Source of the DNA: a virus
Lineage: Duplodnaviria > Caudoviricetes
DNA: 64,000 nt
Direction: 5' to 3' (one strand)
Virus record (IMG/VR): IMGVR_UViG_3300010167_000010
Location: 32,001-96,000 of that record
Part shown: in pieces, positions 10,734-52,200 of the stretch
Position numbering within the stretch: the first letter of the stretch is position 1
Layout of the letters: each line of letters starts with the position of its first letter
The notes under the pieces: generated by a model
Seen by the model: only the letters and a program-made list of their open reading frames with translations
Told to the model about the DNA's origin: nothing
Database searches by the model: none
Position numbers and translations under genes: made by a program

Positions 10734-12212
10734 ATGATTAATGCTATCCAAAAAGAGATAAAGAATCAAGAAAAAAACGAGTTAATGCGATCAGAAAATG
10801 GTGCATTTATGTTTAAAACTTCGGGGCAAAATTTGCTCGATATGAATTTCCGTGTAGCGAGCTATCGCGGAGCTTCTGAAAATAAAATATTAAGTGATTG
10901 GAAAAAGGCTTTTGCTGATGATCCAGAACTTGCTGTAAAGTGGTTGTTTTATGTGAGAGATGTGCGAGAAGGTTTAGGTGAAAGAGATACTTTCAGAAAA
11001 ATTGCAAATTATCTTTCAGGTACTGAAGATAGATTCGTAAAATTAATTAATCAAATACCAGAGTTTGGTAGATGGGATGACCTTTTTTCAGTTTATGGTT
11101 CTAATAAGAAAGCTGTATGTGGGCTCATATCTGCACAACTTAATTTAGATAAGAAAAATATGAAAGAAAATAAGTCAATTTCTCTTTTAGCTAAGTGGCT
11201 TCCATCTGTAAATACATCTTCAAAAGGAAAAAGAAATCTTGCAAGGGAGATAGCAAAAGAATTATGTTTAACAGAAAGAAATTATAGAAAGACTTTAGCA
11301 GAACTTAGAGATTATCTTGACGTAATCGAAGTAAAGACATCTGGCGGAAAGTGGAATGAGATTAATTATGAAGCAGTTCCATCACAAGCGAATTTAAAAT
11401 ATCGTACAGCATTTTTCAAGCATGACGAAGAAAGACGAAGAGAATTTTTATCAAAACTTGAAAAAGGTGAAACAAAGATAAATGCTGGAACTACATTTCC
11501 ACATGATATTGTATCACGTGTAGCTAGATTAAGTAAAACAGATGCAGCATTAGAAGCAATGTGGAAAGCTTTACCATCATACGGTGTTGAAAACACTTTA
11601 GTTGTTGCAGATGGTTCAGGCTCAATGACATCTAGTATCCCAGGTACAAATTCTTCAGCTTTAGATGTTGCAAATGCGCTCGCTATTTATTGTGCTGAAC
11701 ATAATTCTGGTGAGTTCAGAGATAAGTACATCACTTTTTCAGAGAATCCACGTTTTGTCGATTTTAGCAAGTGCACAACTTTACTTCAAAAGATTCAGAC
11801 AGCTATGTCTCATAACGAAGTAGCAAATACAGATATTTATAGAGTGTTCAAACTCGTATTAAATACAGCTGTAAAGAATAATATGAAGCAAGAAGATTTT
11901 GTAAAGAATATTCTTGTTATTAGTGATATGGAGTTCGATCAAGGTACAAGTAATGCTTCTGAAAGTTTGTTTACTAAAATAGCAAAAGAATATGCAGACG
12001 CTGGATATGATTTACCACGTTTAATTTTCTGGAATGTAAATAGCCGAACAGGCGCAGTTCCAGTAAATCAGAACAAGTTAGGAGTAGCTCTGGTATCAGG
12101 TTTTAGTGTACACATCGCAAAGATGGTTATGAGTGGACAACTTTGCCCATTTGAAGCATTGAAAGAAGTCTTAATGGGTGAACGATATAAGGAGATTACT
12201 TTAGGGGGTTAA
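10734..12212 (+). CDS. DUF2828-family TROVE/Ro60-like protein with C-terminal vWA domain
   Basis: RDVREGLGER, GRWDDL, LAKWLPS helical region; MIDAS VADGSGSM, NTD, ISDMEFD, IFWNV, VSGFS. Confidence 0.85.
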   Translation: MINAIQKEIKNQEKNELMRSENGAFMFKTSGQNLLDMNFRVASYRGASENKILSDWKKAFADDPELAVKWLFYVRDVREGLGERDTFRKIANYLSGTEDRFVKLINQIPEFGRWDDLFSVYGSNKKAVCGLISAQLNLDKKNMKENKSISLLAKWLPSVNTSSKGKRNLAREIAKELCLTERNYRKTLAELRDYLDVIEVKTSGGKWNEINYEAVPSQANLKYRTAFFKHDEERRREFLSKLEKGETKINAGTTFPHDIVSRVARLSKTDAALEAMWKALPSYGVENTLVVADGSGSMTSSIPGTNSSALDVANALAIYCAEHNSGEFRDKYITFSENPRFVDFSKCTTLLQKIQTAMSHNEVANTDIYRVFKLVLNTAVKNNMKQEDFVKNILVISDMEFDQGTSNASESLFTKIAKEYADAGYDLPRLIFWNVNSRTGAVPVNQNKLGVALVSGFSVHIAKMVMSGQLCPFEALKEVLMGERYKEITLGG

Positions 12213-12227
12213 TATAACTAAATAAAT

Positions 12228-12247
12228 ACGGGAAAATATTTTCCCGT
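12228..12247 (+). terminator. Hairpin after the DUF2828 gene (terminator or processing signal)
   Basis: ACGGGAAAA-TA-TTTTCCCGT palindrome followed by TTATT. Confidence 0.4.
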
Positions 12248-12256
12248 TTATTCACT

Positions 12257-12400
12257 AAGGCGGGTTCTGCAAACCATACAAAAATCAGGATGCTGCCAAA
12301 CAAACAGTCGTCCAAATTTTGGGCGCAAAAGTAATTGTTTGGCTAGACTTTTTTGGAGTTTTTAAAGTCAATAAACTTTATAAATGACCAAGACCGTCTT
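12257..12400 (+). ncRNA. CWGCAA array unit 1
   Basis: AAGGCGG/CCGTCTT closing stem, CTGCAA at 12267, internal GCCAAACAA/TTGTTTGGC helix. Confidence 0.7.
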
Positions 12401-12444
12401 GTTTATTAAAATAAGCCGCTGACGGGCGGTGAAATATATTATGT

Positions 12445-12539
12445 TAGGTGCGTTAACAGCAAAAACTACTTAAAAATCAATTTGGTAGATTTGTCTTTTG
12501 GAGGTTTAGACGTTAAAGAAAATTGCCACCACGCATCTA
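12445..12539 (+). ncRNA. CWGCAA array unit 2
   Basis: TAGGTGCGT/ACGCATCTA stem, CAGCAA at 12457. Confidence 0.75.
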
Positions 12540-12557
12540 GTTTTTATTTTATTATTC

Positions 12558-12610
12558 CGATGCATACAGCAATTCAAACATACACTTAAAATGTAATTAA
12601 AAGTGCATCG
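12558..12610 (+). ncRNA. CWGCAA array unit 3 (UAA anticodon-like loop)
   Basis: CGATGCA/TGCATCG stem, CAGCAA at 12567, TACA-CTTAAAA-TGTA. Confidence 0.75.
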
Positions 12611-12658
12611 TGTTTATTTTAGATAATGATAAACGACGGTTTATCATAAATTATAATT

Positions 12659-12760
12659 TAGGCGCTAACTGCAAATTAAAAAAGGTTAATAAAATTTCTT
12701 AAACAATTTTTAGTTGGTTCGATCCCGACAACGTAGAAATACGTGATTCTAACGCGTCTA
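12659..12760 (+). ncRNA. CWGCAA array unit 4 (contains a T arm)
   Basis: TAGGCGC/GCGTCTA stem, CTGCAA at 12669, GTTGG-TTCGATC-CCGAC. Confidence 0.75.
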
Positions 12761-12812
12761 GTTTTTATTTAATATGAAGGCCTTCTTAATCATTGTGTGG
12801 CCAACATATAAA

Positions 12813-12879
12813 AAGGTTCAAGCAGCAATTTAAACTTATAAATTATCTGTTAAATGATTATTGTTAAAATACGAATCTT
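12813..12879 (+). ncRNA. CWGCAA array unit 5 (GUU anticodon-like loop)
   Basis: AAGGTTC/GAATCTT stem, CAGCAA at 12823, AATTAT-CTGTTAA-ATGATT. Confidence 0.7.
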
Positions 12880-12880
12880 G

Positions 12881-12905
12881 GCTCCCTTCGGGGAGCATTT
12901 TTTTT
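12881..12905 (+). terminator. Rho-independent terminator closing the array
   Basis: GCTCCC-TTCG-GGGAGC followed by a T tract. Confidence 0.9.
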
Positions 12906-12988
12906 CTCATGTTAATATATAAATAATAATCAATAGTTTGATTCTTCTTACAAAATAGACAGCTTTAAATTACATAATAAGGAGAATT

Positions 12989-13741
12989 ATGAAACCAATA
13001 AAATATGAAAATGAAGCCAGGGCGCCGATAGTTTTTTCTGATGAGGGTGCTGTCTGGCATGGTGAATTAAAATTTAAACCAGAAATAGAACAAGAACTTT
13101 TTTTAAAACAAGAAAAATTTTATAAAGAAAAAAATGAAAATAAACGACAACTTATTTGGAGAGATATGTTTACTCTTGTCCAAAAATATTCTAAATCTTT
13201 AATACTTAAAAAAATAAAAGGTAGACGATATGTTGAGCCTGATGAAGTAGACGATCAGGCTACTCAAACAGCTTTATCATTTATGAGTCAATATATTTAT
13301 AGACCGGGTTACCATGTTGGTGCATCATTTGCTGGTATGATAAATCCAAAAGTATTAGAAACTTTATATAAACATTCTAAAGAGGATTCTCATTATTCTT
13401 TAAACAGCATATTAGGAGATACAAATCTCGAATTAGAAGATATGCAAGAAAGAATTGGTTTTGAATCTATATATGGAAATAATTTTGAAAATCCCGGCGA
13501 TTTTATAAATAGAATATCATTAAAAGATACGCTCAATGGAATAATTAAAGAGTTTTGTAAAGAAGTTAAAAATGAAACATTTAGATTTAAATTAATGCTT
13601 TATATTCAGATTCTATTACGAAAACCTAAAAATAAACATACTCGACCAATGTTTTTTAAATACATAACTCCTAATAAAAAAGAATACGATTTAATACATT
13701 TATTTGAATATGAATTACAGAAGAGACTGAGCAATAATTAG
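12989..13741 (+). CDS. Hypothetical protein, possibly a divergent sigma-factor-like protein
   Basis: Weak region-2-like pattern (DEVDDQATQTALSF..Y....GASFAG); sits before the late genes. Confidence 0.35.
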   Translation: MKPIKYENEARAPIVFSDEGAVWHGELKFKPEIEQELFLKQEKFYKEKNENKRQLIWRDMFTLVQKYSKSLILKKIKGRRYVEPDEVDDQATQTALSFMSQYIYRPGYHVGASFAGMINPKVLETLYKHSKEDSHYSLNSILGDTNLELEDMQERIGFESIYGNNFENPGDFINRISLKDTLNGIIKEFCKEVKNETFRFKLMLYIQILLRKPKNKHTRPMFFKYITPNKKEYDLIHLFEYELQKRLSNN

Positions 13742-37752: not shown

Positions 37753-38292
37753 ATGGTATATATTTTTGAAGGTGTTGATAACGTCGGAAAGGGGACACAA
37801 ATTCAAAAATTAAAAAGACATCTTGAAGAAAAGGGAGAATTAGTTCATATACTACATTACTCAAATATTAAGGGTGATAATATTGAAGAAAGATCTAAAC
37901 AGTATTATTATGAAATGTTTAATTTAATAAAGTTTGCAACATTTAATAAAATAAATTTAATATTAGATAGAGCACATGGGGGTGAAACAGTATATTCACC
38001 TATATATCGTAATTATTCTGGTGATTATATTTATGATATTGAACAAAATTTTGGAAACCGAATATTACAAAATATAACTTTATTTGTATTTACAGACGAT
38101 CCAGAAAATTTAATTGATAGAGAAGATGGTCAATCTTTTTCTACAGAATTTGAAAAGAAAAGAGATGAAATTGTTAAGTTTATAGATTTCTTTGAAAAAT
38201 CTAAAATAAAAAATAAAGCTTTAATAAATATTCAAGATATGGATATTGAACAAGTTTTTAATAAAATGAAAGAATTTATAGAGGCGAAATGA
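37753..38292 (+). CDS. dNMP kinase (thymidylate-kinase fold), possibly for modified dCMP
   Basis: EGVDNVGKGT, LDRAH.GE.VY; adjacent to the TS-like gene. Confidence 0.8.
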   Translation: MVYIFEGVDNVGKGTQIQKLKRHLEEKGELVHILHYSNIKGDNIEERSKQYYYEMFNLIKFATFNKINLILDRAHGGETVYSPIYRNYSGDYIYDIEQNFGNRILQNITLFVFTDDPENLIDREDGQSFSTEFEKKRDEIVKFIDFFEKSKIKNKALINIQDMDIEQVFNKMKEFIEAK

Positions 38293-39125
38293 GTTATAGT
38301 GTAAATGCAAGAAACTTTATTGAAGTTATTCTTGACCCCCTTTATAGGGAATTAAAAAATAATAATATAGTTAATGGGACTGTAGAAATTATTGATGCTC
38401 ATGTATTTTTTATGGCTAATGATGAGACAGCTATGGAATTAGGAACACATCGTAAAGCACAGCATAAATATATTGAGAATGAAAAAAAATGGTATTTAAG
38501 TATGGATAGATGTATTAAAGGACATCCTGGAATTGAAGATAATCAGATATGGAGTAAAATTTGTTCTGATGATGGTATAGTAAATTCGAATTATGGGTGG
38601 TGTGTATTTTCTGCAGATAATGGAACTTTAAGCAAAGGAAGTATTTATACTAATGCAGAATATGGTGGAGAACATATGTCTCAATATGATTTCGCATTAC
38701 AACAATTAAGATTAAGTCCAGAAGGAAGACAATCTATAATTTATTATTCTCGACCAGAAATGCAATGGGAATGGAATGACAATATAAATGCTAAATATGA
38801 TTTTACATGTACTATAAATACACAACATTTTATTCGTAATGGAAAATTAGATTATATTGTCAACATGAGATCTAATGATGCAATTAGAGGATTACATTGC
38901 GGAGATTTACCGTGGCATGGATATGTTTATAATAAAATGTTAGAAGATATAAATAAACATAGAGATATAAATAGTTATATTAAATCTGGTAAAATATTTT
39001 GGAATGCTGGTAGTCTTCATGTTTATAAAAGAGATTTTGAATTACTAACAAAAATAGTAGAAGAATATAGAGAATGGTATAAAGATAATCTTGGACCGAA
39101 AACTTTTCCTTTCGTAGGTGGATAA
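38289..39125 (+). CDS. Thymidylate-synthase-family dCMP-modifying enzyme (gp42-like hydroxymethylase/hydroxylase)
   Basis: VNSNYG, DFTCT, MRSND..G...D (Asp at the cytosine-specificity position), SLHVY. Confidence 0.8.
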   Translation: MSYSVNARNFIEVILDPLYRELKNNNIVNGTVEIIDAHVFFMANDETAMELGTHRKAQHKYIENEKKWYLSMDRCIKGHPGIEDNQIWSKICSDDGIVNSNYGWCVFSADNGTLSKGSIYTNAEYGGEHMSQYDFALQQLRLSPEGRQSIIYYSRPEMQWEWNDNINAKYDFTCTINTQHFIRNGKLDYIVNMRSNDAIRGLHCGDLPWHGYVYNKMLEDINKHRDINSYIKSGKIFWNAGSLHVYKRDFELLTKIVEEYREWYKDNLGPKTFPFVGG

Positions 39126-39166
39126 TTATTGGAAGAGGATATAATCAAATAAAAATACTAATTATT

Positions 39167-39838
39167 ATGAATTATAGAAAAAAATATATGAAAATAATTA
39201 GTAAAGCTAGAAAAGAAAGTAGAAGAAAAAATTGTGGAATTTATTATGAAGAACAACATATTTTACCACAAGCCATTTTTCCACTTTGGAAAAATCGTAA
39301 ATCAAATAAGATTCTTTTAACTGGAAGAGAACATTTTGAAGCACATAAATTATTAGCGAAAATTTATGGTGGTAAAATGATTAATGCTATTCATAGGATG
39401 GCGTTCGGATGTCATAAAAATAAATATAATATTACAGCTGAAGAATATGAAGAAATAAGAATTATTTGGGCACAAAGAGCACGGGAAATGAATACAGGAA
39501 AAAAACATTCTAATGAAGCAAAAATTAAATCTGGGAGATATTGGAAAGGAAGAAAAAGAAATATTGAATCTGTTAAAAAATCTGCTGATGCAAGAAGAGG
39601 TGTTTTAAGAACTGAACAACAAATTGTTAATATAAGTAAAGGGACTTCTGAAGGAATGAAAAAAGTTCCTTATGAAAAATTAGCTTATTGGAAAGGAAAA
39701 AGTTCTCCTGGAATGGCAAATATGACTGGAAAGTGTTGGTACAATAACGGTCAAATTGAAATAGCATCTTTTAATTGTCCAGATGGTTTTATAAAAGGAA
39801 GATTAAGTGGAAAAAAAAGAAAAACAAAAAAAACTTGA
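39167..39838 (+). CDS. HNH homing endonuclease with NUMOD3-like repeats
   Basis: YEEQHILP..N..LT.REHF.AH.LL; GKKHS.E.K.K. Confidence 0.8.
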   Translation: MNYRKKYMKIISKARKESRRKNCGIYYEEQHILPQAIFPLWKNRKSNKILLTGREHFEAHKLLAKIYGGKMINAIHRMAFGCHKNKYNITAEEYEEIRIIWAQRAREMNTGKKHSNEAKIKSGRYWKGRKRNIESVKKSADARRGVLRTEQQIVNISKGTSEGMKKVPYEKLAYWKGKSSPGMANMTGKCWYNNGQIEIASFNCPDGFIKGRLSGKKRKTKKT

Positions 39839-40355
39839 TAAGTTTTTTTTAGAAACAGCGGTGAAAGCTGCGGAATTTTCTTCATGTATTCGATTAAAAG
39901 TAGGGGCTGTTATAACTAAGGATAATAGAATAATTTCTACTGGTTGGAATGGAGTCTCTTCAGGTGTTCCGCATTGTAATGAATTAAATAATGAATTAAG
40001 ATTAATTAATGATGATTCTTTATATCAAATAGAAGATAGAAAAAAACATCATATATTTTCTGAACAATTTGAAATTCATGCTGAAATGAATGCTATATTA
40101 GATATGGCAAAACGCGGATTATCACCCGAAGGAGCAACACTTTATACTACAATTGCTCCTTGTACAAATTGTGCGAAGCTCGTTATAGTTTCTGGTATTA
40201 AAAGAATAGTTTATTTAAAAGAATATGATAGAGATAATAATAAATTAGATATTGAGGGAAAAACTTTGAATGATGTCTTATATAATAATTTAAACGGACC
40301 ACAAATTATAAAAGTTTTATCACCTAATGTAATTATAGAAAAATTTGAGGAATAA
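39807..40355 (+). CDS. dCMP deaminase
   Basis: VGAVI, STGWNG, HAEMNA, PCTNC. Confidence 0.92.
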   Translation: MEKKEKQKKLDKFFLETAVKAAEFSSCIRLKVGAVITKDNRIISTGWNGVSSGVPHCNELNNELRLINDDSLYQIEDRKKHHIFSEQFEIHAEMNAILDMAKRGLSPEGATLYTTIAPCTNCAKLVIVSGIKRIVYLKEYDRDNNKLDIEGKTLNDVLYNNLNGPQIIKVLSPNVIIEKFEE

Positions 40356-40358
40356 AAT

Positions 40359-40616
40359 ATGTTAGAACTTTGGTTATTCATGATAGTTTTAGTAAGTTTA
40401 TTTCATTTAATTTGTAATACACTTTGGAGAATAAAAGATCATCAAAATTGGAAGGCTACTAATTTATTTCATAATAGACTTATAAAAATACAAGAAGATT
40501 ATAATAGAATGCAACGAGATGCTCATAATACTGCAATGGCTAATCAACAAATTCAACACGAACATCTAATTAAAGCAATAGATGAAGGGAAAATTCAAGT
40601 AATAAATCCCAGTTAA
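40359..40616 (+). CDS. Small membrane-anchored protein
   Basis: N-terminal TM helix. Confidence 0.5.
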   Translation: MLELWLFMIVLVSLFHLICNTLWRIKDHQNWKATNLFHNRLIKIQEDYNRMQRDAHNTAMANQQIQHEHLIKAIDEGKIQVINPS

Positions 40617-40640
40617 TATAAAAATCAAGGAGATATAAAT

Positions 40641-41285
40641 ATGTCACAAGTTCAAACTACGCCTAGCGAATTATTAGAAGAAGCATATGAAACATTAAAA
40701 GAAAAAAAGATGGCCTCTAAACATATGAACATGATAGCTTCAGATACGGCTAAAATGCAAAAAATAGAAAAACCTATTCTTGTTAGGGTAAAAGATTATT
40801 ATCATTATCGCGGGGCTGGTTGGGAAGGAAAAGATCCTCTTAGTAGAGTTCAAGATGAAAAATTTCCAGATAGAGTAACACCAACTATGAGAAAATTATT
40901 ACAAATTGTAGATGATTTGGCAGCAGTAGGTCAATTAGATATGCTAGATGTTTATTTTGATGCTCTAAAAGCTAAAGGAATTGAAATAACTGTTTCAAAT
41001 AAAGATGTAAGAGTAAGTGATGTTGATGAAACTTGGCAAGCAGTAGAAAATATGTCAGGATTTCAATCTAAAATATGTCAATTAGCTGATGAAATTAATT
41101 TTGGTTGTACACAAGTAGCAGAAGATATAAATTTTACACCTAAACAAGAATTTAAAGGTGTTCTTAATTTATACGCTAAAAAAGAAGAAGCTAAAGATGT
41201 AGATGATATGTATCAAGATAAAGTAACTGGTTTACAAATGACAGAAACGGCTTGGAATAATGTATACGACGAAAATCTAAATTAA
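40641..41285 (+). CDS. Hypothetical protein
   Basis: RBS AAGGAG; GTTAATATA motif upstream. Confidence 0.65.
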   Translation: MSQVQTTPSELLEEAYETLKEKKMASKHMNMIASDTAKMQKIEKPILVRVKDYYHYRGAGWEGKDPLSRVQDEKFPDRVTPTMRKLLQIVDDLAAVGQLDMLDVYFDALKAKGIEITVSNKDVRVSDVDETWQAVENMSGFQSKICQLADEINFGCTQVAEDINFTPKQEFKGVLNLYAKKEEAKDVDDMYQDKVTGLQMTETAWNNVYDENLN

Positions 41286-41700
41286 GGATTATAAAAATGG
41301 AAGTTAAACTTGCTTCTCATTTAGAACAATCTCTTTGGTTAAAATATTATGAAAAATTTTTAGAAAGAGAACCTAATCAATATAAAAATGCAGCTGCTTA
41401 TGCAGATAATATTGTTATTGAATTTAAATCTAGAAATAATTATATTGATCAATATGACGATTAAAAGAGGAACAATAATGGGAACAGAAATATCTCGAAC
41501 ATTTACTGATGAACAATTATTTAATTTAGAATTGTCTATAAAAAGTATTATATTAAATGAATTAGAAAGACAAGTTTTTCCTCGTCTTTTAATAGATGCC
41601 CCAGTAATTCCATATGCTGAATTATCTAAAATAATAAATAACTTAAGAACAACACCTACTTTAAAAATAACAGAAACAGGTGTTTCAATAGGATTACCAA

Positions 41701-42330
41701 ATGAATCAATACAAAAATAAATTTATAGTTTTTGAAGGAGCTGATACGTGTGGAAAAAGTTCTACATGTGAATTATTTGTAGAACATTTAAAATCTAATA
41801 ATATAGATGTAGTAAAAACTTTTCAACCTGGAGATACTGAATGGGGTCCGTTAGCATCTTTATTTAGATCTCTATGTAAAGACAAGCGACATAATTTATC
41901 TGAATATGGTAATTTATTTGCATTTTTATTAGATAGGGCTGAATGTGTAGATAAAATAATTAGACCGGCTCTTAAAGAAGGGAAAACAGTTGTATGTGAT
42001 CGTTATACTTATAGTACAATTGCATATCAATTATACGGAAAAAATTTAATAGAAGATTTAACTTTAACTTGTGGACAAGAAATAGCAATGGCACTTCTTC
42101 AATGGTTTAAAAACCCTTATACAGATATTATTCCAGATATAGTCTATTATTTCCCAGAAAAAGTTGGAAATAGAATTAATGATATAAATGATAAATTTGA
42201 TAATGCGACTGATGATTTTAATAAAAGAGTTCAAAATGCTTATCATTTAATGTCTATAAAACATAATTGGAAAATAGTTAAACCTGGAAGTTCTGTTGAA
42301 GAAACTTTAACTAATTTGTTAGGAGTTTAA
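41701..42330 (+). CDS. tmk: Thymidylate kinase
   Basis: FEGADTCGKSS, QPG, DR, CDRY.YS..AYQ. Confidence 0.9.
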   Translation: MNQYKNKFIVFEGADTCGKSSTCELFVEHLKSNNIDVVKTFQPGDTEWGPLASLFRSLCKDKRHNLSEYGNLFAFLLDRAECVDKIIRPALKEGKTVVCDRYTYSTIAYQLYGKNLIEDLTLTCGQEIAMALLQWFKNPYTDIIPDIVYYFPEKVGNRINDINDKFDNATDDFNKRVQNAYHLMSIKHNWKIVKPGSSVEETLTNLLGV

Positions 42331-43281
42331 ATGAAAGTAATAGTAACGGGACATGCTGGCTTCATAGGAAGCCATCTTTGTGATGATCTCTTAAAAAGAG
42401 ATTATGAAGTAATTGGTATAGATAATTTTTCTAATGGAAAAGAAAAAAATATAAAACACTTACATAAAAATAAAAATTTTACGTCTATAAAAGGCGATAT
42501 TATGAAAAGGCTTCCAGGTGAAGAAGAAAAAATATTTGAAAATGTTGATGCTATTTTTCATTTCGCAGCTAATTCAGATATACAAAAATCTTCTAAAGAC
42601 CCATCAATAGATTTTCGTAATACTTTTCATATTACTGTTCAAATGCTAGATTATTGTAGAAAATATAATATAAAGAATTTTATATTTTCCAGTACTAGTG
42701 CAATTTATGGTGATACTAATAATATGAAAGTTCCGGAAAACCATGGACCACTTATTCCTCAATCACATTATGGTGCTGCTAAATTATCAGCTGAAGCTTT
42801 TATTAGTTCTTATGCAGAAAATTTCGGAATTAAATCTTGGATAATTAGGTTTCCAAATGTTTGTGGTTCTAGAATGACTCATGGGGCTATTTATGATTTT
42901 ATTAAACAATTACAATCACAAAAAGATTTAGTTAAAAATTTAAATGTATTAGGTGATGGTAAACAATGTAAACCATATATTCATGTATCTGAACTAATAA
43001 ATGCAATTATTTATATTTGGTTAAGTTCAGCACGCAAAGTAAATATATATAATGTAGCACCTGAAACACAAACTACAGTAGCTGATATTGCTAAATGGTG
43101 TGGTGATGCTTTTGGTGAAGTTAATATAAAGTTTGAAGATAAACCAATTGGTTGGACAGGTGATATAGCAAAATTTCAATATAACACAAGTAGACTACAA
43201 AAATTAGGTTTTGAATTAAAAATGACTTCTGATGAAGCTGTTAAAACATCTATACATGAATTAATTAAGGAGAAACTATGA
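42331..43281 (+). CDS. NAD-dependent nucleotide-sugar epimerase/dehydratase
   Basis: TGHAGFIG, FSSTSAIYG, YGAAK. Confidence 0.92.
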   Translation: MKVIVTGHAGFIGSHLCDDLLKRDYEVIGIDNFSNGKEKNIKHLHKNKNFTSIKGDIMKRLPGEEEKIFENVDAIFHFAANSDIQKSSKDPSIDFRNTFHITVQMLDYCRKYNIKNFIFSSTSAIYGDTNNMKVPENHGPLIPQSHYGAAKLSAEAFISSYAENFGIKSWIIRFPNVCGSRMTHGAIYDFIKQLQSQKDLVKNLNVLGDGKQCKPYIHVSELINAIIYIWLSSARKVNIYNVAPETQTTVADIAKWCGDAFGEVNIKFEDKPIGWTGDIAKFQYNTSRLQKLGFELKMTSDEAVKTSIHELIKEKL

Positions 43282-43850
43282 AAAAATACGAAGAAAATTT
43301 AGAACAATATTTCAATGAAGAAATAATGATTTTAGAACATTTAAAGAAGGATAAGAATATAGTTATCCTATTAGATCATTTATTAAATGCTAGAAATAAT
43401 TTAAGAACAATATATATTATGGGAAATGGTGGATCAGGAGCCGCCGCATCTCATTGGGTTAATGATTTTAATAAGGGAATGCATGGAACGCCACCATTTA
43501 AAATGATTTGTTTAAATGATAATATTGCAACACTTACTGCTATTGCTAATGATGATAGTTATGATAATGTTTTTGTTAAGCAATTAGAATTTAGAGTAAC
43601 AAATAACGATTTAGTAATAGGTATTTCTGGTAGTGGTAATTCTCGAAATGTAATTAAAGCAATAGATTATGCTAATGCTGTTGGAGCAATGACTTTTGCT
43701 ATAGTTGGTTTTGATGGTGGAAAATTAAAGAAAGAAGCTAAATGTGCTATTCATATAAATACTAATGAAATGGGAATATTTGAAGATTTATCTATGACTA
43801 TAGATCATGCTATATTTTATCTCTTTAAAAAAGGTTTGTTAAATGGGTAA
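43278..43850 (+). CDS. gmhA: SIS-domain phosphosugar isomerase (GmhA-like)
   Basis: GNGGSGA, TAIAND, ISGSGNS.NV. Confidence 0.85.
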   Translation: MKKYEENLEQYFNEEIMILEHLKKDKNIVILLDHLLNARNNLRTIYIMGNGGSGAAASHWVNDFNKGMHGTPPFKMICLNDNIATLTAIANDDSYDNVFVKQLEFRVTNNDLVIGISGSGNSRNVIKAIDYANAVGAMTFAIVGFDGGKLKKEAKCAIHINTNEMGIFEDLSMTIDHAIFYLFKKGLLNG

Positions 43851-45168
43851 GCGAGTTATAATTTTGGGTGGTGGGTTATCTGGAATAACTTTAGCTCATA
43901 CGCTACAAAATTATCCAGAAATAGACACTATAGATATAATAGAAAAAGAAGAAAAATTAGGTGGACTTTGTCGTTCATTTAAATCTAAAGATGGTATAGA
44001 TTACGATATAGGACCTCATATTTTCTTTTCTAAAAATAAAGATACTTTAGAATTTATGAAAGATATTATGATGCCTTATATAAATTCTTATAGACGTTCT
44101 AATCAAATAATTCATAAAAGAAAATTTGTTCAATATCCTTTTGAGAATGATTTGGGAAAATTAGACGAAGAAGAAAAAAAATATGTTCTTAGAACTTTTA
44201 ATGAAAATCCATACGAAAATTTAGAAGCAACAAATATGAGACAATTTTTTCTAAAAACATTTGGAAAAGGTATTTGTGATTTATATTTATTGCCTTATAA
44301 TGAAAAAATATGGAAATATGATTTATCATTTATGGATTTACAAATGGTTGAACGTATTCCTAAACCACCAACAGAAGATATACTTAAATCTATTAATGGT
44401 GAAACAGTTGACGGATATACACATCAATTAAATTTCTTTTATCCAGAAAAAGGAGGTTGTCAGACATTTATAGATTTATTTGTAAAAGAATTAAAACATA
44501 AGGTAAGATTTATAAAAGAAAAGGTTGTAAATATAGAAAATGGTTGTATAAATAATACATATAATTATGATATTCTAATTTCTACAATCCCATTAAATGA
44601 ATTTACTAATTTATTTCATGAAAAACCAAATGCGCCTTCTACACAAAAAACTTTATATCCAGTAAAAGAATATGGAGATAATCTAGTTTATAACGGAATA
44701 GAAATTTTTATAGTAAATGTTGAAGGTGATATTGGAGAAGAAAATTTTGCATTTATGACAGCTGATAAAAATATAGAATTTCATAGATTATCTAAATTAG
44801 ATTATTTTGGAAAAAATTATCATAAACCAGGAACTACCACATTTATGATAGAAGTTACTAAACCTAAAGAAGAATTACATTTATCTAAACATATAAATTA
44901 TATAAAACTTATGATAGAAAATGGTTTAATGAAATTATTTGGTACTGATATTAAAATAAATAATATAGATTGTAGTATGTATAATTATGCATATGTAATT
45001 AATGATATAAATCAAAAGGAGAATAAAAGAAAAATATTTGAACACTATAAACAAAAATACAAGAACATTTATTTTGCTGGTCGCTTTGGTTCATGGCAAT
45101 ATCTAAATATGGATCAAACAATTGAAAACGCTTGGAATGTAGCTAAGGAGATTAAAAATGACTTTTAG
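43843..45168 (+). CDS. FAD-dependent NDP-pyranose mutase-like (Glf/UGM-type) protein
   Basis: GGGLSG, GG.CRS, D.GPHIF, PYNEKIW, F.YP..GG, GRFGSWQY.NMDQ. Confidence 0.75.
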   Translation: MGKRVIILGGGLSGITLAHTLQNYPEIDTIDIIEKEEKLGGLCRSFKSKDGIDYDIGPHIFFSKNKDTLEFMKDIMMPYINSYRRSNQIIHKRKFVQYPFENDLGKLDEEEKKYVLRTFNENPYENLEATNMRQFFLKTFGKGICDLYLLPYNEKIWKYDLSFMDLQMVERIPKPPTEDILKSINGETVDGYTHQLNFFYPEKGGCQTFIDLFVKELKHKVRFIKEKVVNIENGCINNTYNYDILISTIPLNEFTNLFHEKPNAPSTQKTLYPVKEYGDNLVYNGIEIFIVNVEGDIGEENFAFMTADKNIEFHRLSKLDYFGKNYHKPGTTTFMIEVTKPKEELHLSKHINYIKLMIENGLMKLFGTDIKINNIDCSMYNYAYVINDINQKENKRKIFEHYKQKYKNIYFAGRFGSWQYLNMDQTIENAWNVAKEIKNDF

Positions 45169-45343
45169 ATTCGGAGAAAAAAATATAACTATAGAGGAAC
45201 TTATAGATTTAATTCCTCGATGCGGTAATGTAGATTTTACTTTAACAGGTGTAGAAGCTATGGATTTAGCAATTATTATTAAAAAACTTTATGAAGATAA
45301 TAAAATGATATATGATTCAGAAGGAGAATTTGTAAGAGAATGA
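45158..45343 (+). CDS. Hypothetical protein
   Basis: RBS AAGGAG, coupled ORF. Confidence 0.5.
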   Translation: MTFRFGEKNITIEELIDLIPRCGNVDFTLTGVEAMDLAIIIKKLYEDNKMIYDSEGEFVRE

Positions 45344-45621
45344 TAGAAATAGTTCTTGTTTCTACTTTTATTAGTTGTATTGGATTATTCTTATTAGCTG
45401 TTATTATTGAAAAAGCTTATACTTATAATAGACATAAAACTAAAAAAGTTATATTTAAAAAAGTAGAAAAAGAACGTTATATAAAACCAATAGAACAGAT
45501 AAAGGAACAGGAAATTAAAAAAGTGGAATTTAATTTTGATGACTTTGTAGATTTTTCTGTTCCTGATAAAACAGAAAAAATAGATAATATAGATATGTTT
45601 AATTTAGGTGAATTTAAGTAG
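45340..45621 (+). CDS. Small membrane-anchored protein
   Basis: N-terminal TM helix. Confidence 0.5.
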   Translation: MIEIVLVSTFISCIGLFLLAVIIEKAYTYNRHKTKKVIFKKVEKERYIKPIEQIKEQEIKKVEFNFDDFVDFSVPDKTEKIDNIDMFNLGEFK

Positions 45622-45637
45622 AGGTTAATGTATTAAA

Positions 45638-46528
45638 ATGAAAAAAACAGCAGTAATGATATTAGGTGGTAATGGCCCAAAATCTAAAATGTATAATTCA
45701 GATTTTCCAACTTTCCAAACTAATGAAAAACAAGATATGTATATATTTTATCCTGCGGGAAAATATCCTGATTGGAAATTAGACCCATCAATTGGAACTT
45801 TAATTGATGATAATGGTCCATTTAAAACACCAGTAGTTCCAACTATTAGAAATAATATGATAGAGTTTGTAAATAAAAAGGGCTATGAAATATTATGGAT
45901 AGTAGATGATGATATAACTAATTTTTATCGTTTTCATGAAAAACAATCAGACGATCAACCTTTACAAAAAGATAAAAAAACACCACTACCAGATGTTGAA
46001 GAATTATTTGGTGGGATTATTGGAGCTAACTTTAAACGATTTAAATTAAAGACTGGAAAAAAATATTCTAATCAAATACCTTATTCTTGTATGTACCTAA
46101 ATTTAAAAATGTATAAAGAAAAAGGAATAAACCCTTTGTTTGAAATAGGTGTAGCAACTTGGGATGACTTTGATTTTGCTTTACAAATGAGACAAAAAGG
46201 ATTTTTACCACAAACATTTAATCAATATGCTATTATAAAAACTGGAACTCAAGATAGTGAAACTGTTGGAAAAAGTATTGCTGCTTCTGGAATAGATAAA
46301 GTAAATAAATTGGGATTTGAATTATATAAAAAATGGGGACATGCTAATACAGCTGTAAAGTTAAAAGTAAATATTATTGATGTTGCTCCAGCTCTTTGTA
46401 AATCTTTTCAACCAAAGTTTTGGACATATAGAATTGATACATATGAAAATTGGAAAGAAGACGTATTAAAAGATTCTAAAAATTTACGAAAATCTGAAAA
46501 GGCTAAAAAAGAAGGATTACATGTTTAA
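45638..46528 (+). CDS. GT-A fold glycosyltransferase (TET-associated/TAGT-like)
   Basis: RN.M, WIVDDDI..F, WDDFDFALQ, LYKKWG. Confidence 0.65.
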   Translation: MKKTAVMILGGNGPKSKMYNSDFPTFQTNEKQDMYIFYPAGKYPDWKLDPSIGTLIDDNGPFKTPVVPTIRNNMIEFVNKKGYEILWIVDDDITNFYRFHEKQSDDQPLQKDKKTPLPDVEELFGGIIGANFKRFKLKTGKKYSNQIPYSCMYLNLKMYKEKGINPLFEIGVATWDDFDFALQMRQKGFLPQTFNQYAIIKTGTQDSETVGKSIAASGIDKVNKLGFELYKKWGHANTAVKLKVNIIDVAPALCKSFQPKFWTYRIDTYENWKEDVLKDSKNLRKSEKAKKEGLHV

Positions 46529-47213
46529 GTTTGGCGAAAATAAATCGTTACAACTATTTAATATTTTAAAAGATAAAAAAACAGGATTACTTTATAGAGA
46601 AAATAGTTCTGACGAAATTACTCTTAAAGACGTTAAATCTGAATATAAAAAATTATATCCTTTTTGTAAAGATAAAACTATTTTAGATATGGGCGCTAAT
46701 ATTGGAATATTTACTCATTATGCTTTAGAAAATGGTGCAAAAAAAGTTATTTGCTATGAACCTGAAGAAATAAATTATTCTATATTACTTAATCAAAATT
46801 TTAAACAAGTAGAATTACATAATGTAGCTATTACTCAATCAGATAGTTTTATAATGTTATATAGCACACCAATTAAAGAAGGAAAAAAAATATCTACAGA
46901 TAATCATTCTATAAAACAAATAAGAGGAAGAACTGCAAAACAAGTTGAATCTTTAAATTTTAGAAAACAATTAGATTTGCATCAACCTGATATATTAAAA
47001 GTAGATATTGAAGGTGCTGAGTTTATTCTTGATTTTAAAAATTTACCAGAATGTATAAAATATATTGCTATAGAAATTCATTATCAACTTGATGAAATTT
47101 GTTCTGATAAATTATTAGAAGTTTTAAGAGACCAATTTAATGAATTAGATTTTAAAATGAAAAATATGTTTAAGAAAAAGTTTGCAGCTGTTTTTATAGG
47201 AGAAAGAAAATGA
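46521..47213 (+). CDS. FkbM-family SAM methyltransferase
   Basis: LDMGANIG, YEP, LKVDIEGAE, IEIH. Confidence 0.88.
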   Translation: MFKFGENKSLQLFNILKDKKTGLLYRENSSDEITLKDVKSEYKKLYPFCKDKTILDMGANIGIFTHYALENGAKKVICYEPEEINYSILLNQNFKQVELHNVAITQSDSFIMLYSTPIKEGKKISTDNHSIKQIRGRTAKQVESLNFRKQLDLHQPDILKVDIEGAEFILDFKNLPECIKYIAIEIHYQLDEICSDKLLEVLRDQFNELDFKMKNMFKKKFAAVFIGERK

Positions 47214-48010
47214 AATATTTAATAGCTATTGCGGCAAGAAGTTCTACTTTTCTACACCCCAAACATCCTAATATTATTTATTTTATGGATGATGATCAAA
47301 CAGACCATTATAAAGATGTAAATCATATTGCTTATCCAAGAGCACATTTACAAGCTAAAAGAAACTTTGTTTTAGACTATGCACGATCTAATAATATAGA
47401 ACATTTAATAGTTTGTGATGATGATGTAGATTATTTCAGAACACCAGAAAAGAAAAAAATAGATTTTATTTCTGGTTGTGAAGAAATGATTAAAATAGCT
47501 AAAGAAGAAAAGTTAACTGGAATGATGTTAACACAAGATGTATTTATTCATTGGAAAAAAGATGCTGAAAAATTTACAAATTGTACAAAATTGGCTTGGT
47601 GTTCTTATTTAAATGTAAAACAAACTCCAGCTAATATTAGATATGATGAAACTCCTAAAACATTCGAAGATGTTGACATGGCCTTACAATTAATGCATGC
47701 TAATCAATCATTAAAGACTTATAATTGGTTATCAGCTCACATGATATCACATAAATCTACTTGTTTTGATCCAGAAAATTATGCAAAAGGTTTTCTTGAA
47801 TATATGTGTAGACTTTATATTAAATGGGGTGATGTAGTAAGTATACATCAACAAAAAAGATTTCCTAAATCACCATACGGATTTAGATTAAAATTAGATA
47901 AATTTCATAAATGGACTAAAAAAGAATTAGCTCAAGCAATATTAGATAATTATACTGAAGAAAATGTAAATAAGTTTTTTGATAAAAAATACGTCTTTGG
48001 TCAAGTTTAA
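47210..48010 (+). CDS. GT-A fold glycosyltransferase (TAGT-like), second paralog
   Basis: KRNFVLD, VCDDDV..F, FEDVDMALQ, LYIKWG. Confidence 0.7.
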   Translation: MKYLIAIAARSSTFLHPKHPNIIYFMDDDQTDHYKDVNHIAYPRAHLQAKRNFVLDYARSNNIEHLIVCDDDVDYFRTPEKKKIDFISGCEEMIKIAKEEKLTGMMLTQDVFIHWKKDAEKFTNCTKLAWCSYLNVKQTPANIRYDETPKTFEDVDMALQLMHANQSLKTYNWLSAHMISHKSTCFDPENYAKGFLEYMCRLYIKWGDVVSIHQQKRFPKSPYGFRLKLDKFHKWTKKELAQAILDNYTEENVNKFFDKKYVFGQV

Positions 48011-48110: not shown

Positions 48111-48692
48111 TTATTTAGCATCAATAACTTCAACATTAGATAAGTTTAAATTTCTGGCTGCCTTTAAGTTTTTATCATCATCATCAATAAATACTACATT
48201 ATCGTACATATCAGCAATCATTTTTATAATTTTAGCTTTTCTTTCAAAATCTTTTAATCCATCTAACACTTCACAATATTTTTCATCCCCAACGGCATAA
48301 GATAATGATTTTTTAAAATTATTTTTTATATCTTGAAGTCTCCCATCTTTATCTCTAAATTTTAAAAATGACATCATTGCGTCTTTAATAACATCTTCGC
48401 ATCCCCTTGCTGTTAAAAAAGCACAATCATATCCCTTATTGATATAATTATCTATAATTTTAAGATTACTTAATAATGGTGTTCCATTCATTATAGAGCG
48501 TCTAACTATATCTGGATCATTAAATTCCCAATAATCGTATGTAATTCCAGGTTTTCCCTTGTCTGAATCATTTGCAAATTCTTCTGTAGATAATCGTTCT
48601 TTTTCTCCGTCTTTAAACTTCCAAATACCAATATCTTCTACCTTAGATTTAAGTATTGTATCGTCTATGTCGAAAAGAACTATACTGTTCAC
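48111..48692 (-). CDS. HAD-superfamily phosphatase
   Basis: FDIDDT, LTAR, K, FIDDD..NL. Confidence 0.85.
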   Translation of the reverse strand: MNSIVLFDIDDTILKSKVEDIGIWKFKDGEKERLSTEEFANDSDKGKPGITYDYWEFNDPDIVRRSIMNGTPLLSNLKIIDNYINKGYDCAFLTARGCEDVIKDAMMSFLKFRDKDGRLQDIKNNFKKSLSYAVGDEKYCEVLDGLKDFERKAKIIKMIADMYDNVVFIDDDDKNLKAARNLNLSNVEVIDAK

Positions 48693-49099
48693 GTTATCAT
48701 ACCTTTATTTAAACTATTTTTATCTGTTTGATTTATATGATTTATTACCCATTCAATTAAAAAGAATACGACATCGTCTAAACTAAAATTAATTTCAGAC
48801 GTTTCTATAATACCACCAATTTTTTTAATAAATGTAGAGTGTTCATATCTATGTTGGTCTAAAAATCTTTTATTTATGTTATTTAATTCCATTATATTTT
48901 CTTCAGTAGAAAAATGTTCAATTATATAATTTGTAATTTCATCTTTTACTGAATTAAAATACTTAAGTTCTTTTTTATGATCTAAATCTATATTATTTGT
49001 TAAATCATTGATGAAATTTATTAGACCTTTATGCTGATTATCTACGATGTCTAAACCTGTAGCCAGTTCTTCTGACCACTCTAAAACTTGTGATTTCAT
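48689..49099 (-). CDS. Bacteriohemerythrin
   Basis: W..ELATG...D.QH, HF..EE, H..EH, W..NHI...D iron ligands. Confidence 0.9.
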   Translation of the reverse strand: MKSQVLEWSEELATGLDIVDNQHKGLINFINDLTNNIDLDHKKELKYFNSVKDEITNYIIEHFSTEENIMELNNINKRFLDQHRYEHSTFIKKIGGIIETSEINFSLDDVVFFLIEWVINHINQTDKNSLNKGMIT

Positions 49100-50892: not shown

Positions 50893-52200
50893 ATGAAGAA
50901 GAGTAATCTCAAATGGGCTGTTATTCAGCCTTTAACTGGCGGCGTTTATTTTGCTGCTGAACAATCTTTTGGTAAATCGGCTGAATGGATTTTATCATAT
51001 CCTGGATTAGAAAAAGAATATTTTAATAAAGACGGTAAATGTATCAATATGGGTAATGAAAGACATTTACTCAAATATCTAGAAAAGAATAATAATTTAC
51101 CACCATATACACAATTTGATCATGATATGTTTGATGATAGAAACGGAAAAATTATTCATATAAAAAATAATGAAGAATATGGAAATAAAAAATTTAAAGA
51201 AGACGACATCATAAAAAATGAAATAGATTTAATTTGTGCTGTTCCTGTTTGTTCAGGTTTGAGCGCTGCTAATACTCAGGATCATGGAAAAAAAGATAGT
51301 ATTAAAAATAATAATATGAAATTTATTACTGAGTTTACTTTAACATCAATTCAGCCAAAAGTATTTATATTTGAAAATGCACCTAATCTTTTTACTAATG
51401 TTGGTATTGAAGTTAGAGATTATCTTAATAATGTTGCTTTAGATAGAGGTTATTCAGTTTCTTATATAAAAACAGATACTAGATTACATAAAAATGTTCA
51501 AAAAAGAATTAGAACATTTGTTATATTTTGGAAATGGTTAGATAATAAACCAACTCCTCCGCCAATGATTGGTTATGAAAATGCTCCTTTTGATACTGTT
51601 CAAGAATACTTAAATTTAATTCCAAAAAATGCTACACAACAAGATATAATATTAAATGAAGTAAATAAAGATAGAGAATATAATTTTATTAAAAAACATT
51701 TTGGTAAAAATTGGCGAAAAGAAGTCGGAAGACAAAGATTAAAAAGTTTTATTATATCGAGAGGACTAGAAAATGATTTCTATCAATTTCATAAAGACGA
51801 TAAATTAAAAGCTCATTATAAATATTGTAAACATAAACTAGATATTCAAAAAGGTTATTTTGATAGATCACATTTTGTAATGGGTAACGATTATATGCCA
51901 ACTGTTTATCATGGAAATACTTGGTCAGCAATACACCCGACAGAAGATAGGTGTCTAAACTTTAGAGAATATATTCATGCTATGGGTTTACCGCACGATT
52001 TTGAATATTTGCATAATAAACATACTTTTGGTTCTGTTATTGGTCAAAATGTTCCAGTAAATACTTTTAAATTTTGGATTGATGAATGTAGGTATATAAT
52101 TGAAGATTGGGATAATAGAAGAAAAAAAGCTCCAATAGGAGTAAATAGAACTAATGTTTATTTTCATGATAATATTCATCAACGCGGAGAATATAAATGA
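50893..52200 (+). CDS. C5-cytosine DNA methyltransferase-like protein
   Basis: PVCSGLS, FENAP, Q.R.RTF, R.L..RE...MG.P.DF, GQNVP; atypical motif I (QPLTGG). Confidence 0.75.
   Translation: MKKSNLKWAVIQPLTGGVYFAAEQSFGKSAEWILSYPGLEKEYFNKDGKCINMGNERHLLKYLEKNNNLPPYTQFDHDMFDDRNGKIIHIKNNEEYGNKKFKEDDIIKNEIDLICAVPVCSGLSAANTQDHGKKDSIKNNNMKFITEFTLTSIQPKVFIFENAPNLFTNVGIEVRDYLNNVALDRGYSVSYIKTDTRLHKNVQKRIRTFVIFWKWLDNKPTPPPMIGYENAPFDTVQEYLNLIPKNATQQDIILNEVNKDREYNFIKKHFGKNWRKEVGRQRLKSFIISRGLENDFYQFHKDDKLKAHYKYCKHKLDIQKGYFDRSHFVMGNDYMPTVYHGNTWSAIHPTEDRCLNFREYIHAMGLPHDFEYLHNKHTFGSVIGQNVPVNTFKFWIDECRYIIEDWDNRRKKAPIGVNRTNVYFHDNIHQRGEYK

Follow-up and report, generated by a model that had tools for sequence, protein, structure and literature searches.

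The DNA analysed here, a stretch of 64,000 nucleotides hereafter called the window, corresponds to bases 32001-96000 of the virus record IMGVR_UViG_3300010167_000010 (IMG/VR; Duplodnaviria, Caudoviricetes). The whole record is 329,018 bp long, with direct terminal repeats and a G+C content of 28.5%; its length and repeats indicate a jumbo phage. The window hosts an operon in which genes plausibly devoted to the synthesis of 5-hydroxymethylcytosine (hmC) are joined to sugar-nucleotide genes, to two glycosyltransferases, denominated GT1 and GT2, and to a methyltransferase (Table 1). The gene set suggests that hmC in the phage DNA carries heptose-derived glycosylation from a donor made by the phage itself, a reading to which a probability of about 0.5 is assigned. 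A fuller version is proposed only tentatively. According to it, virion DNA would contain 5-hydroxymethylcytosine bearing an O-methylated heptofuranose, alone or with a second sugar; its donor would be the product of a complete nucleoside diphosphate (NDP)-heptose pathway of the phage, epimerase and ring-contracting mutase included, and the tailoring cassettes would be swapped in sister phages, which feature a radical SAM enzyme, the epimerase only, or a QueC-like protein.

From the dTMP kinase gene through GT2, each gene either touches the next or overlaps it by 4-11 bases, the one exception being a 16-base gap. This near-gapless spacing argues that nucleotide genes, sugar genes and transferases belong to one operon. 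Protein families, active-site signatures, operon structure, synteny and the resemblance to a bacterial gene cassette were all computed. The genes listed in an earlier note on this DNA (kinase, thymidylate synthase homolog, epimerase, isomerase, flavoprotein, the two transferases and the methyltransferase) are all found on the + strand, at the positions it gave. The interval hosts in addition an HNH homing endonuclease, a deoxycytidine monophosphate (dCMP) deaminase, a 214-aa protein, a dTMP kinase and several small open reading frames (ORFs) that the note had not listed.

Predicted synthesis of the modified base

The thymidylate synthase homolog is far more similar to T4 dCMP hydroxymethylase (1b49, its best PDB match, E 5.7e-37) than to thymidylate synthase (7.4e-8). 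It has been aligned with E. coli ThyA, T4 gp42, RB69 gp48 and the homolog encoded by L003, a related phage contig; residues are numbered as in E. coli. Cys146 and Asp169 are retained, Leu143 is replaced by Asp and, after a one-residue insertion, Asn177 is also replaced by Asp. The tract HCGD aligns with R-ND of T4, and Y-D-F-T-C with S-D-F-M-C of the same enzyme. The residues separating enzymes that form methyl, hydroxymethyl and hydroxy products have been laid out (PMC13326640): Asp177 selects dCMP, an acidic residue at Leu143 is the water-access criterion for a hydroxymethylase, and every 5-hydroxy-dCMP synthase tested, RB69 gp48 included, carries Asn at the position of Asp169. Around this last position the window protein and its L003 homolog read R-S-N-D, against R-S-Q-N in RB69 gp48. 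Since Asp169 is retained, unlike in RB69-type enzymes, the predicted product is hydroxymethylcytosine and not 5-hydroxycytosine. Judged from the aligned residues, the signature of a T4 gp42-type dCMP hydroxymethylase is present in full. The Asp that the earlier note had pointed out at the dCMP-specificity position is the one aligned to Asn177, and its proposal that modified dCMP is made before replication by a gp42-type enzyme agrees with both the 1b49 match and the active-site signature.

The synthase homolog is the sole ThyA-family gene of the whole genome, and a ThyX gene is located at 153 kb. The presence of ThyX would free the homolog from dTMP synthesis. The dCMP deaminase may supply dUMP for ThyX so that, with the dTMP kinase, thymidylate supply would be covered separately. 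The gene encoding the 179-aa kinase overlaps the start of the synthase gene by 4 bases. Its product is 72% identical in L003, has a thymidylate-kinase-like N-terminus and shows weak similarity (E 0.035) to RB69p045. Kinases of the thymidylate-kinase fold adjoin thymidylate synthase homologs in RB69, DLP3 and RL38J1 (PMC13326640, Table 1), and the 179-aa protein is the natural candidate for the 5-hydroxymethyl-dCMP (5hm-dCMP) kinase.

The 214-aa protein, acidic and helical, is the most conserved of the cluster in L003 (77% identity) and is 54% identical in another phage contig, L012. In the relatives its gene always precedes that of the dTMP kinase, and a deaminase gene lies upstream wherever one was called. 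The protein was modelled by AlphaFold2 with high confidence (pLDDT 93). It could not be assigned to a family, and Foldseek, VIA-align and Atlas shape searches found no convincing fold in PDB or Atlas, where all matches were generic helical hairpins. A 36%-identical homolog is found in phage contig L016, close to ThyX and to a gene for a 5-hydroxymethyl-deoxyuridine (5-hmdU) DNA kinase. Because of this vicinity, the 214-aa protein may be associated with pathways for modified pyrimidines in general.

Transferases and probable origin of the sugar donor

The two TAGT-like transferases flanking an FkbM methyltransferase, as described in the earlier note, are distinguishable by their scores on the TAGT model, GT1 being above and GT2 below the cut-off. 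GT2 is clearly, by sequence, a fast-evolving paralog of GT1. The two are matched by BLASTP (2e-7) with the R, DDD and E-D-V motifs aligned, hhalign gives 93.9% against the GT1 family, and identity to the L003 counterparts is 69% for GT1 and only 25% for GT2. The AlphaFold2 model of GT1 (pLDDT 85) has a GT-A fold, and the structure search that the earlier note had recommended places it nearest to TAGT-domain phage proteins. The top BFVD matches include these, the transferase pair of phiRSL1 and a beta-glucosyl-HMC-alpha-glucosyltransferase; PDB matches are GT-A enzymes, among which TarP. Residues R71, D90-D91-D92 and the tract W175-D-D-F are invariant or nearly so, and D176-D177-F occupy the EDY/F position. 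Phage GT-A DNA transferases have been reported to resemble TarP and JGT, and to carry an R..DDD..EDY/F motif (preprint 10.1101/2023.12.21.572611). As the pattern of TAGT, T-even and TarP matches is the one reported for these enzymes, GT1 and GT2 are plausibly transferases of the DNA type. By hydropathy both are soluble, with no signal peptide and no membrane segment. The GT1 family is rare, as an exhaustive profile search retrieved 19 relatives among 1.8 billion representatives; a scan of viral contigs with a GT1 sequence pattern found none. A distant GT1 homolog is similarly located among DNA-metabolism genes. The FkbM gene adjoins TAGT genes in L003, in L012 and in a 328-kb contig, ERZ27264051. 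A PDB search with the methyltransferase gave generic SAM-motif matches only; O-methylation of the glycan is proposed as its role.

The SIS isomerase of the earlier note is present and can be specified further, as its best NCBIfam model is TIGR00441 (gmhA) and phosphoheptose isomerases are found among its PDB matches down to 1.4e-20. Other genes of a nucleotide-heptose pathway are located far from the operon, so that the phage cassette is split over three genome sites. An HddA-like GHMP kinase is encoded at genome 234299-235279 (best NCBIfam model NF049969, 1.8e-44; PDB heptose kinases, ~1e-37). The whole-genome search also identified an HddC-like nucleotidyltransferase (295845-296591), directly followed by a GmhB-like phosphatase (296581-297108; 5.6e-45). 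For GmhA, HddA and GmhB the best NCBIfam model is that of the heptose pathway; for the nucleotidyltransferase the HddC model ranks fourth, after archaeal GlmU, mannose-1-phosphate guanylyltransferase and MurU. PDB matches of the four proteins are heptose isomerases, kinases, phosphatases and HddC. On these similarities, the four enzyme types of the nucleotide-heptose pathway are all encoded, as divergent members; a PfkB-type heptose kinase is absent from the genome. Two more transferase genes are found in the HddA region. A GT32-like DXD glycosyltransferase (genome 235242-235970; L025:7243-7971) overlaps the 3' end of the HddA-like gene, and a 776-aa GT2+GT4 fusion (genome 238695-241025; L025:10696-13026) is encoded 3.4 kb downstream, surrounded by genes for PIF1 helicase and clamp loader.

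The epimerase aligns from end to end with the promiscuous GDP-sugar 4-epimerase of Pyrococcus horikoshii (8rdg, E 5e-64), which acts at C4 of both GDP- and UDP-sugars. Its best NCBIfam model is GalE (6.1e-46). Ser and YxxxK are retained, and the TDE motif of dehydratases is not present. Inversion at C4 is the most likely reaction predicted from these features. The flavoprotein matches the UDP-galactopyranose mutase (UGM) of Trypanosoma cruzi along residues 4-421 (4dsg, E 5e-25); this alignment includes the G-x-H loop and the GRFGxWxY motif at the C-terminus. All named solved relatives of the flavoprotein are UGMs. The term UGM-like used in the earlier note is thus justified by a full-length match, but the protein scores 67 bits on the Glf equivalog TIGR00031 (cut-off 303.75), has no match to the GLF domain PF03275, and its relatives lie in heptose cassettes. 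It is plausibly a UGM-like mutase of a separate, heptose-linked subfamily. Mutases dependent on FADH2 are predicted to make GDP-heptofuranoses for Campylobacter jejuni capsules (PMC10680097).

More than 3,600 cellular homologs of the flavoprotein were found at E <= 1e-10. Members of this family are about 437 aa long and frequently carry the annotation protoporphyrinogen oxidase or FAD-dependent oxidoreductase (loci L018, L019, L028, L029 and L030). Six bacterial loci hosting homologs about 49% identical to the phage protein were sampled, and GmhA was found in the same cluster in five. In four of these five the whole set, made of an HddC-GmhB fusion, a GHMP kinase (HddA), GmhA and the flavoprotein, is in view, and two of the four feature the epimerase also. 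Each of the six phage enzymes has a match of 35-54% identity in one and the same bacterial cassette; the epimerase is 45% identical to the short-chain dehydrogenase/reductase (SDR) of L018, and GmhA 46-48% identical to the SIS genes of L018 and L019. The adjacent HddC and GmhB genes of the phage mirror the bacterial HddC-GmhB fusion, and the overlap of the GmhA and mutase genes is common to L019. The bacterial cassettes occur with GT2-family enzymes and ABC exporters of surface glycans, which suggests that the flavoproteins are NDP-heptopyranose mutases serving surface glycans in low-GC bacteria. Since the closest cellular relatives of the phage mutase mostly reside in heptose-gene operons, the phage donor is more likely an epimerised NDP-heptofuranose than UDP-galactofuranose.

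These data are best accommodated by the following pathway. The gp42-type enzyme would hydroxymethylate dCMP, and the translationally coupled 179-aa kinase would phosphorylate 5hm-dCMP; host enzymes would then form the triphosphate, to be incorporated by the phage polymerase. The dTTP supply would be maintained by the dCMP deaminase, ThyX and the dTMP kinase. GmhA would convert sedoheptulose-7-phosphate to heptose-7-phosphate, from which the HddA-, GmhB- and HddC-like enzymes would make NDP-heptose, probably GDP-linked. The epimerase would invert one centre, probably C4, and the flavin mutase would contract the ring to the furanose form. One sugar would be attached to the 5-hydroxymethyl group in DNA and a second one to the first, both by the TAGT transferases, and the FkbM enzyme would methylate the glycan. 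The furanosyl cytosine inferred in the earlier note, with one or two sugars and possibly an O-methyl group, is also what the gp42-type enzyme, TAGT pair, methyltransferase and mutase together predict; the furanose is here more likely a heptose.

Related phages, alternative readings and known systems

L003 hosts the whole operon in the same order, lacking the homing endonuclease. Identities range from the values given above for the 214-aa protein and GT1 down to 38% for the methyltransferase and to that of GT2. The metagenome of L003 also yielded a sibling contig, which shows synteny to a different part of the window genome and encodes HddA (59% identity), HddC (43%) and GmhB (52%); the two contigs may derive from one phage. 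In the sibling contig HddA is found at a different genomic position, and no transferase gene adjoins it. A GmhB pattern scan of viral contigs retrieved none, and the gene of the sibling contig was found by direct search.

Three more distant relatives keep the kinase, the synthase homolog, the 214-aa protein, the dTMP kinase and TAGT transferases. A deaminase was called in two of them and FkbM was seen in two, the third locus ending soon after the TAGT gene. L012 features a radical SAM enzyme (11828-13156), and L015 a QueC-like protein together with a TAGT transferase; sugar genes are missing from both clusters. The hmC core, TAGT transferases and FkbM stay linked in four phage relatives, whose intervening genes vary. 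A fixed core combined with exchanged tailoring genes is the pattern expected of a diversifying DNA glycan. In two sister phages, L012 and ERZ27264051, the radical SAM gene, placed beside or between the TAGT transferases and adjoining FkbM, replaces the GmhA-mutase cassette. This hints at a different DNA adduct, possibly C-methylated or rearranged.

Several observations weigh against a heptosylated hmC. All four nucleotide-heptose proteins score under the NCBIfam equivalog cut-offs (GmhA 93/209, HddA 153/600, GmhB 153/178, HddC 82/300), and in one of the six bacterial loci no heptose genes are found near the flavoprotein homolog. The 328-kb ERZ27264051 contig has the epimerase alone, with neither GmhA nor mutase, and a radical SAM enzyme between the transferases, so that the substrate of the epimerase may be a hexose donor from the host. 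The three extra transferase domains of the HddA region could be the true users of the heptose. By analogy, these could instead extend the DNA glycan, as do the scattered transferases (gp151, gp215 and gp237) of RL38J1 (PMC13326640). Replacement of cytosine may be partial. Searches of the genome for gp56, MazG and MazG-like dCTPases found none, and complete replacement is therefore not assured; the sole candidate found for dCTP or dUTP removal is a divergent 201-aa protein of the dUTPase family (genome 18896-19501), whose N-terminus is extended by about 70 residues. Encoded 3 kb downstream of the operon (window 50893-52200) is a C5 DNA cytosine methyltransferase, 61% conserved in L003. As this enzyme would be idle on DNA in which all cytosine is hmC, replacement may be incomplete. 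TarP-like GT-A enzymes also act on teichoic acids. Lastly, the phage is uncultured, and substrates, DNA acceptor, order of the transferases, sugar stereochemistry and methylation site are all predictions from genes.

Some of these points would be accounted for if the heptose were destined elsewhere. GT1 and GT2 would then glycosylate hmC from a host donor, for example UDP-glucose, leaving the heptose to the GT32-like and GT2+GT4 enzymes for use on a virion protein or the host envelope. The overlap of the GT32-like gene with HddA, the vicinity of the two-domain transferase and the distance of HddA, HddC and GmhB from the operon all fit this view, as do the GT2-family enzymes and ABC exporters fed by the bacterial cassette, and the TAGT genes of L012 and L015, found in clusters free of sugar genes. 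The alternative is nevertheless unlikely, if to be taken seriously, because in two phage lineages epimerase, GmhA and mutase occupy precisely the space from the nucleotide genes to GT1, all being part of an overlapping operon; moreover, no transferase adjoins HddA in the relative, and scattering of transferases is known from DNA-glycosylating phages such as RL38J1. Rather improbable is that the sugar on hmC is a hexofuranose, formed by a GalE acting on host UDP-glucose and by a UDP-galactopyranose mutase, the product being galactofuranosyl-hmC and the heptose genes serving some other use. GalE is indeed the best model for the epimerase, the solved relatives of the flavoprotein are UGMs, the 328-kb relative has an epimerase but neither GmhA nor mutase, and Rhizobium phage RL38J1 encodes a UGM, UDP-galactofuranose having been proposed for its cytosine glycan (PMC13326640). 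Against this, the GmhA gene lies between those of epimerase and mutase and overlaps both, the epimerase is nearest to the subgroup accepting GDP-sugars, and the flavoprotein lacks the GLF domain, scores 67 versus 304 on the Glf equivalog and has its nearest cellular relatives in heptose cassettes, one of which is devoid of the epimerase.

The earlier note had considered as an alternative that transferases and methyltransferase act off DNA, the operon merely juxtaposing nucleotide metabolism and glycosylation of virion or surface. This seems very improbable. It would suit the action of the GT-A enzyme TarP on teichoic acid, the C5 methyltransferase, which suggests unmodified cytosine, and the membrane-anchored 93-aa ORF preceding GT1; yet the transferases are soluble, belong to TAGT and have phage DNA transferases as best structural matches, their linkage to the hydroxymethylase core is kept across diverged relatives, and the distant GT1 homolog is found among DNA-metabolism genes. 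Slimmer still are the chances that the glycan is on another base, be it 5-hydroxy-dCMP as in RB69 or 5-hydroxymethyl-dUMP formed with the help of the deaminase. Compared to T4 gp42, the synthase homolog has one extra residue just ahead of the specificity Asp and a further insert of some 20 residues, the deaminase gene adjoins, and the distant 214-aa homolog is close to a 5-hmdU DNA kinase gene. However, a dCMP deaminase gene is found in T4 as well, which makes hmC. In addition, Asp169 is retained where all tested 5-hydroxy-dCMP synthases have Asn, and Asp177 selects dCMP (PMC13326640). Heptose-derived glycosylation of hmC from a phage-made donor is hence the preferred reading.

The system is related in different ways to known ones. 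The predicted system and that of T-even phages (T4 gp42, gp1, gp56 and the alpha- and beta-glucosyltransferases) are alike in hydroxymethylating dCMP before replication, in the active-site signature, in having a dedicated kinase and a dCMP deaminase, and in glycosylating DNA after replication. GT1 also resembles the family of T-even second-sugar transferases (phrog_842; BFVD; T2/T6 beta-glucosyl-HMC-alpha-glucosyltransferase). Unlike in T-even phages, neither a gp56-type dCTPase nor a GT-B alpha- or beta-glucosyltransferase was found in the genome, the donor would be made by the phage in place of host UDP-glucose, and a methyltransferase is added. The 179-aa kinase of this phage has a thymidylate-kinase-like N-terminus. 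The phages RB69, DLP3 and HY126, which have arabinosyl-5-hydroxycytosine, and RL38J1, which has hexosyl-5-hydroxycytosine (PMC13326640), similarly feature a synthase homolog, a kinase of the thymidylate-kinase fold, sugar-nucleotide synthesis by the phage and several transferases, and RL38J1 likewise encodes a pyranose-furanose mutase (PMC13326640). The comparison with RB69 drawn in the earlier note holds only loosely. RB69-type enzymes make 5-hydroxycytosine with synthases changed from Asp169 to Asn, and the RB69 isomerase is an arabinose-5-phosphate isomerase, not GmhA-like as here. Transferases of this group are GT-B, and arabinose or hexoses are obtained via KdsD-type isomerases or a classical Glf; the window phage has Asp169, GT-A TAGT transferases, GmhA, HddA, GmhB and HddC, and a mutase of another subfamily.

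TET/5mYOX clusters (Pyle et al., 10.1101/2023.12.21.572611) share the GT-A motif R..DDD..EDY/F, the resemblance to JGT and TarP, and glycans of 1-3 sugars on 5-hydroxymethylcytosine (5hmC), mono- and di-heptose included; heptosyl-5hmC has been reconstituted from a TET-type metavirome cluster (10.1101/2023.12.21.572611), the nucleosides being reported at 449 for heptosyl-5hm-dC and at 641 for its di-heptosyl counterpart. There 5hmC is formed on DNA by a C5 methyltransferase and a dioxygenase, and the heptose enzyme is GT-B. Here 5hmC would be made at the nucleotide level; the Tet_JBP profile had no match in the genome, and none in the control genomes either. The heptose predicted here would also be epimerised, ring-contracted and probably methylated, unlike that of TET clusters. 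The C. jejuni HS:10/HS:41 loci (PMC10680097) and the low-GC bacterial cassette HddC-GmhB/SDR/HddA/GmhA/flavoprotein have the same six enzyme types, at 35-54% identity, with GmhA and mutase adjoining and overlapping. In bacteria the donor feeds GT2-family enzymes and ABC exporters, whereas in the phage the tailoring half is joined to the hmC operon with its TAGT transferases, and the cassette is distributed over three sites.

The combination of nucleotide-level hmC synthesis, a TAGT pair, a complete phage heptose pathway with epimerase and furanose mutase, and an FkbM enzyme was not found in the literature searched. If the proposed structure is correct, no furanose heptose and no methylated sugar had, as far as that literature shows, been described on DNA before, and the swapping of cassettes in sister phages (radical SAM, epimerase only, QueC-like) would point to an arms race in which the glycan is at stake. 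The adduct predicted from this cluster would be new in chemical terms. Whether a phage can be cut by a given restriction, CRISPR or type IV system depends on the sugar coat of its DNA, and such coats also supply enzymes for epigenetic sequencing and DNA labelling. The comparison with relatives suggests a modular design: hydroxymethylcytosine core and TAGT transferases stay the same, and the sugar-tailoring cassettes added to them can be exchanged. It offers a route to mining further DNA glycans.

Gene list and neighbouring features

Table 1. Genes of the predicted hmC operon interval (positions in the window)
Gene product	Position	Strand	Supporting match or feature
P-loop nucleotide kinase, 179 aa, proposed 5-hydroxymethyl-dCMP kinase	37753-38292	+	PF02223 1.6e-9; phrog_761
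Thymidylate synthase homolog, predicted dCMP hydroxymethylase (5hm-dCMP synthase)	38289-39125	+	PDB 1b49 E 5.7e-37; PF00303 4e-11
HNH homing endonuclease	39167-39838	+	phrog_655 3.5e-32
dCMP deaminase	39807-40355	+	PF00383 4.9e-23; ComEB-like
Conserved helical 214-aa protein, function unassigned	40641-41285	+	conservation in relatives
dTMP kinase	41701-42330	+	TIGR00041 97 bits (cut-off 83.25); gap 0 to epimerase gene
NAD-dependent NDP-sugar epimerase	42331-43281	+	PF01370 1.2e-50
GmhA-like sedoheptulose-7-phosphate isomerase (SIS_2)	43278-43850	+	TIGR00441 gmhA 2e-26
UGM-like FAD-dependent pyranose-furanose mutase, proposed NDP-heptopyranose mutase	43843-45168	+	PDB 4dsg E 5e-25; PF13450 9.3e-13
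Two small ORFs, 61 aa and 93 aa	45158-45621	+	no family match
GT1, TAGT-family GT-A glycosyltransferase, proposed acceptor 5hmC in DNA or a sugar already attached to it	45638-46528	+	PF20691 38 bits (cut-off 27.5)
FkbM-family SAM methyltransferase	46521-47213	+	TIGR01444 64.2 bits (cut-off 37.7); PF05050
GT2, divergent TAGT-like GT-A glycosyltransferase	47210-48010	+	PF20691 24.7 bits (under the 27.5 cut-off)

Among 50,697 phage records, neither the interval (megablast) nor GT1 (tblastn) had a match, and a mutase search of phage records matched two distant gut phage contigs and no others. Scans of this AT-rich DNA for promoters, terminators and TATAAATA performed no better than on shuffled sequence.

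The HNH homing endonuclease gene, inserted between the hydroxymethylase and dCMP deaminase genes, overlaps the start of the latter by 32 bases and is not found at this position in the syntenic L003. It is a selfish insertion, outside the pathway. Directly after the operon, the opposite strand (window 48111-49099, minus) carries genes for a HAD-like DUF2608 protein and a hemerythrin; the DUF2608 gene is 66% conserved in L003 and has no demonstrable link to the sugar pathway. The operon interval resides in a + strand block of genes for nucleic-acid metabolism, and a CCA-adding enzyme, NAD salvage genes and an SNF2 helicase are encoded upstream. Of the two small ORFs, that of 61 aa has a weak counterpart in L003, and that of 93 aa features, by hydropathy, a hydrophobic N-terminal helix.

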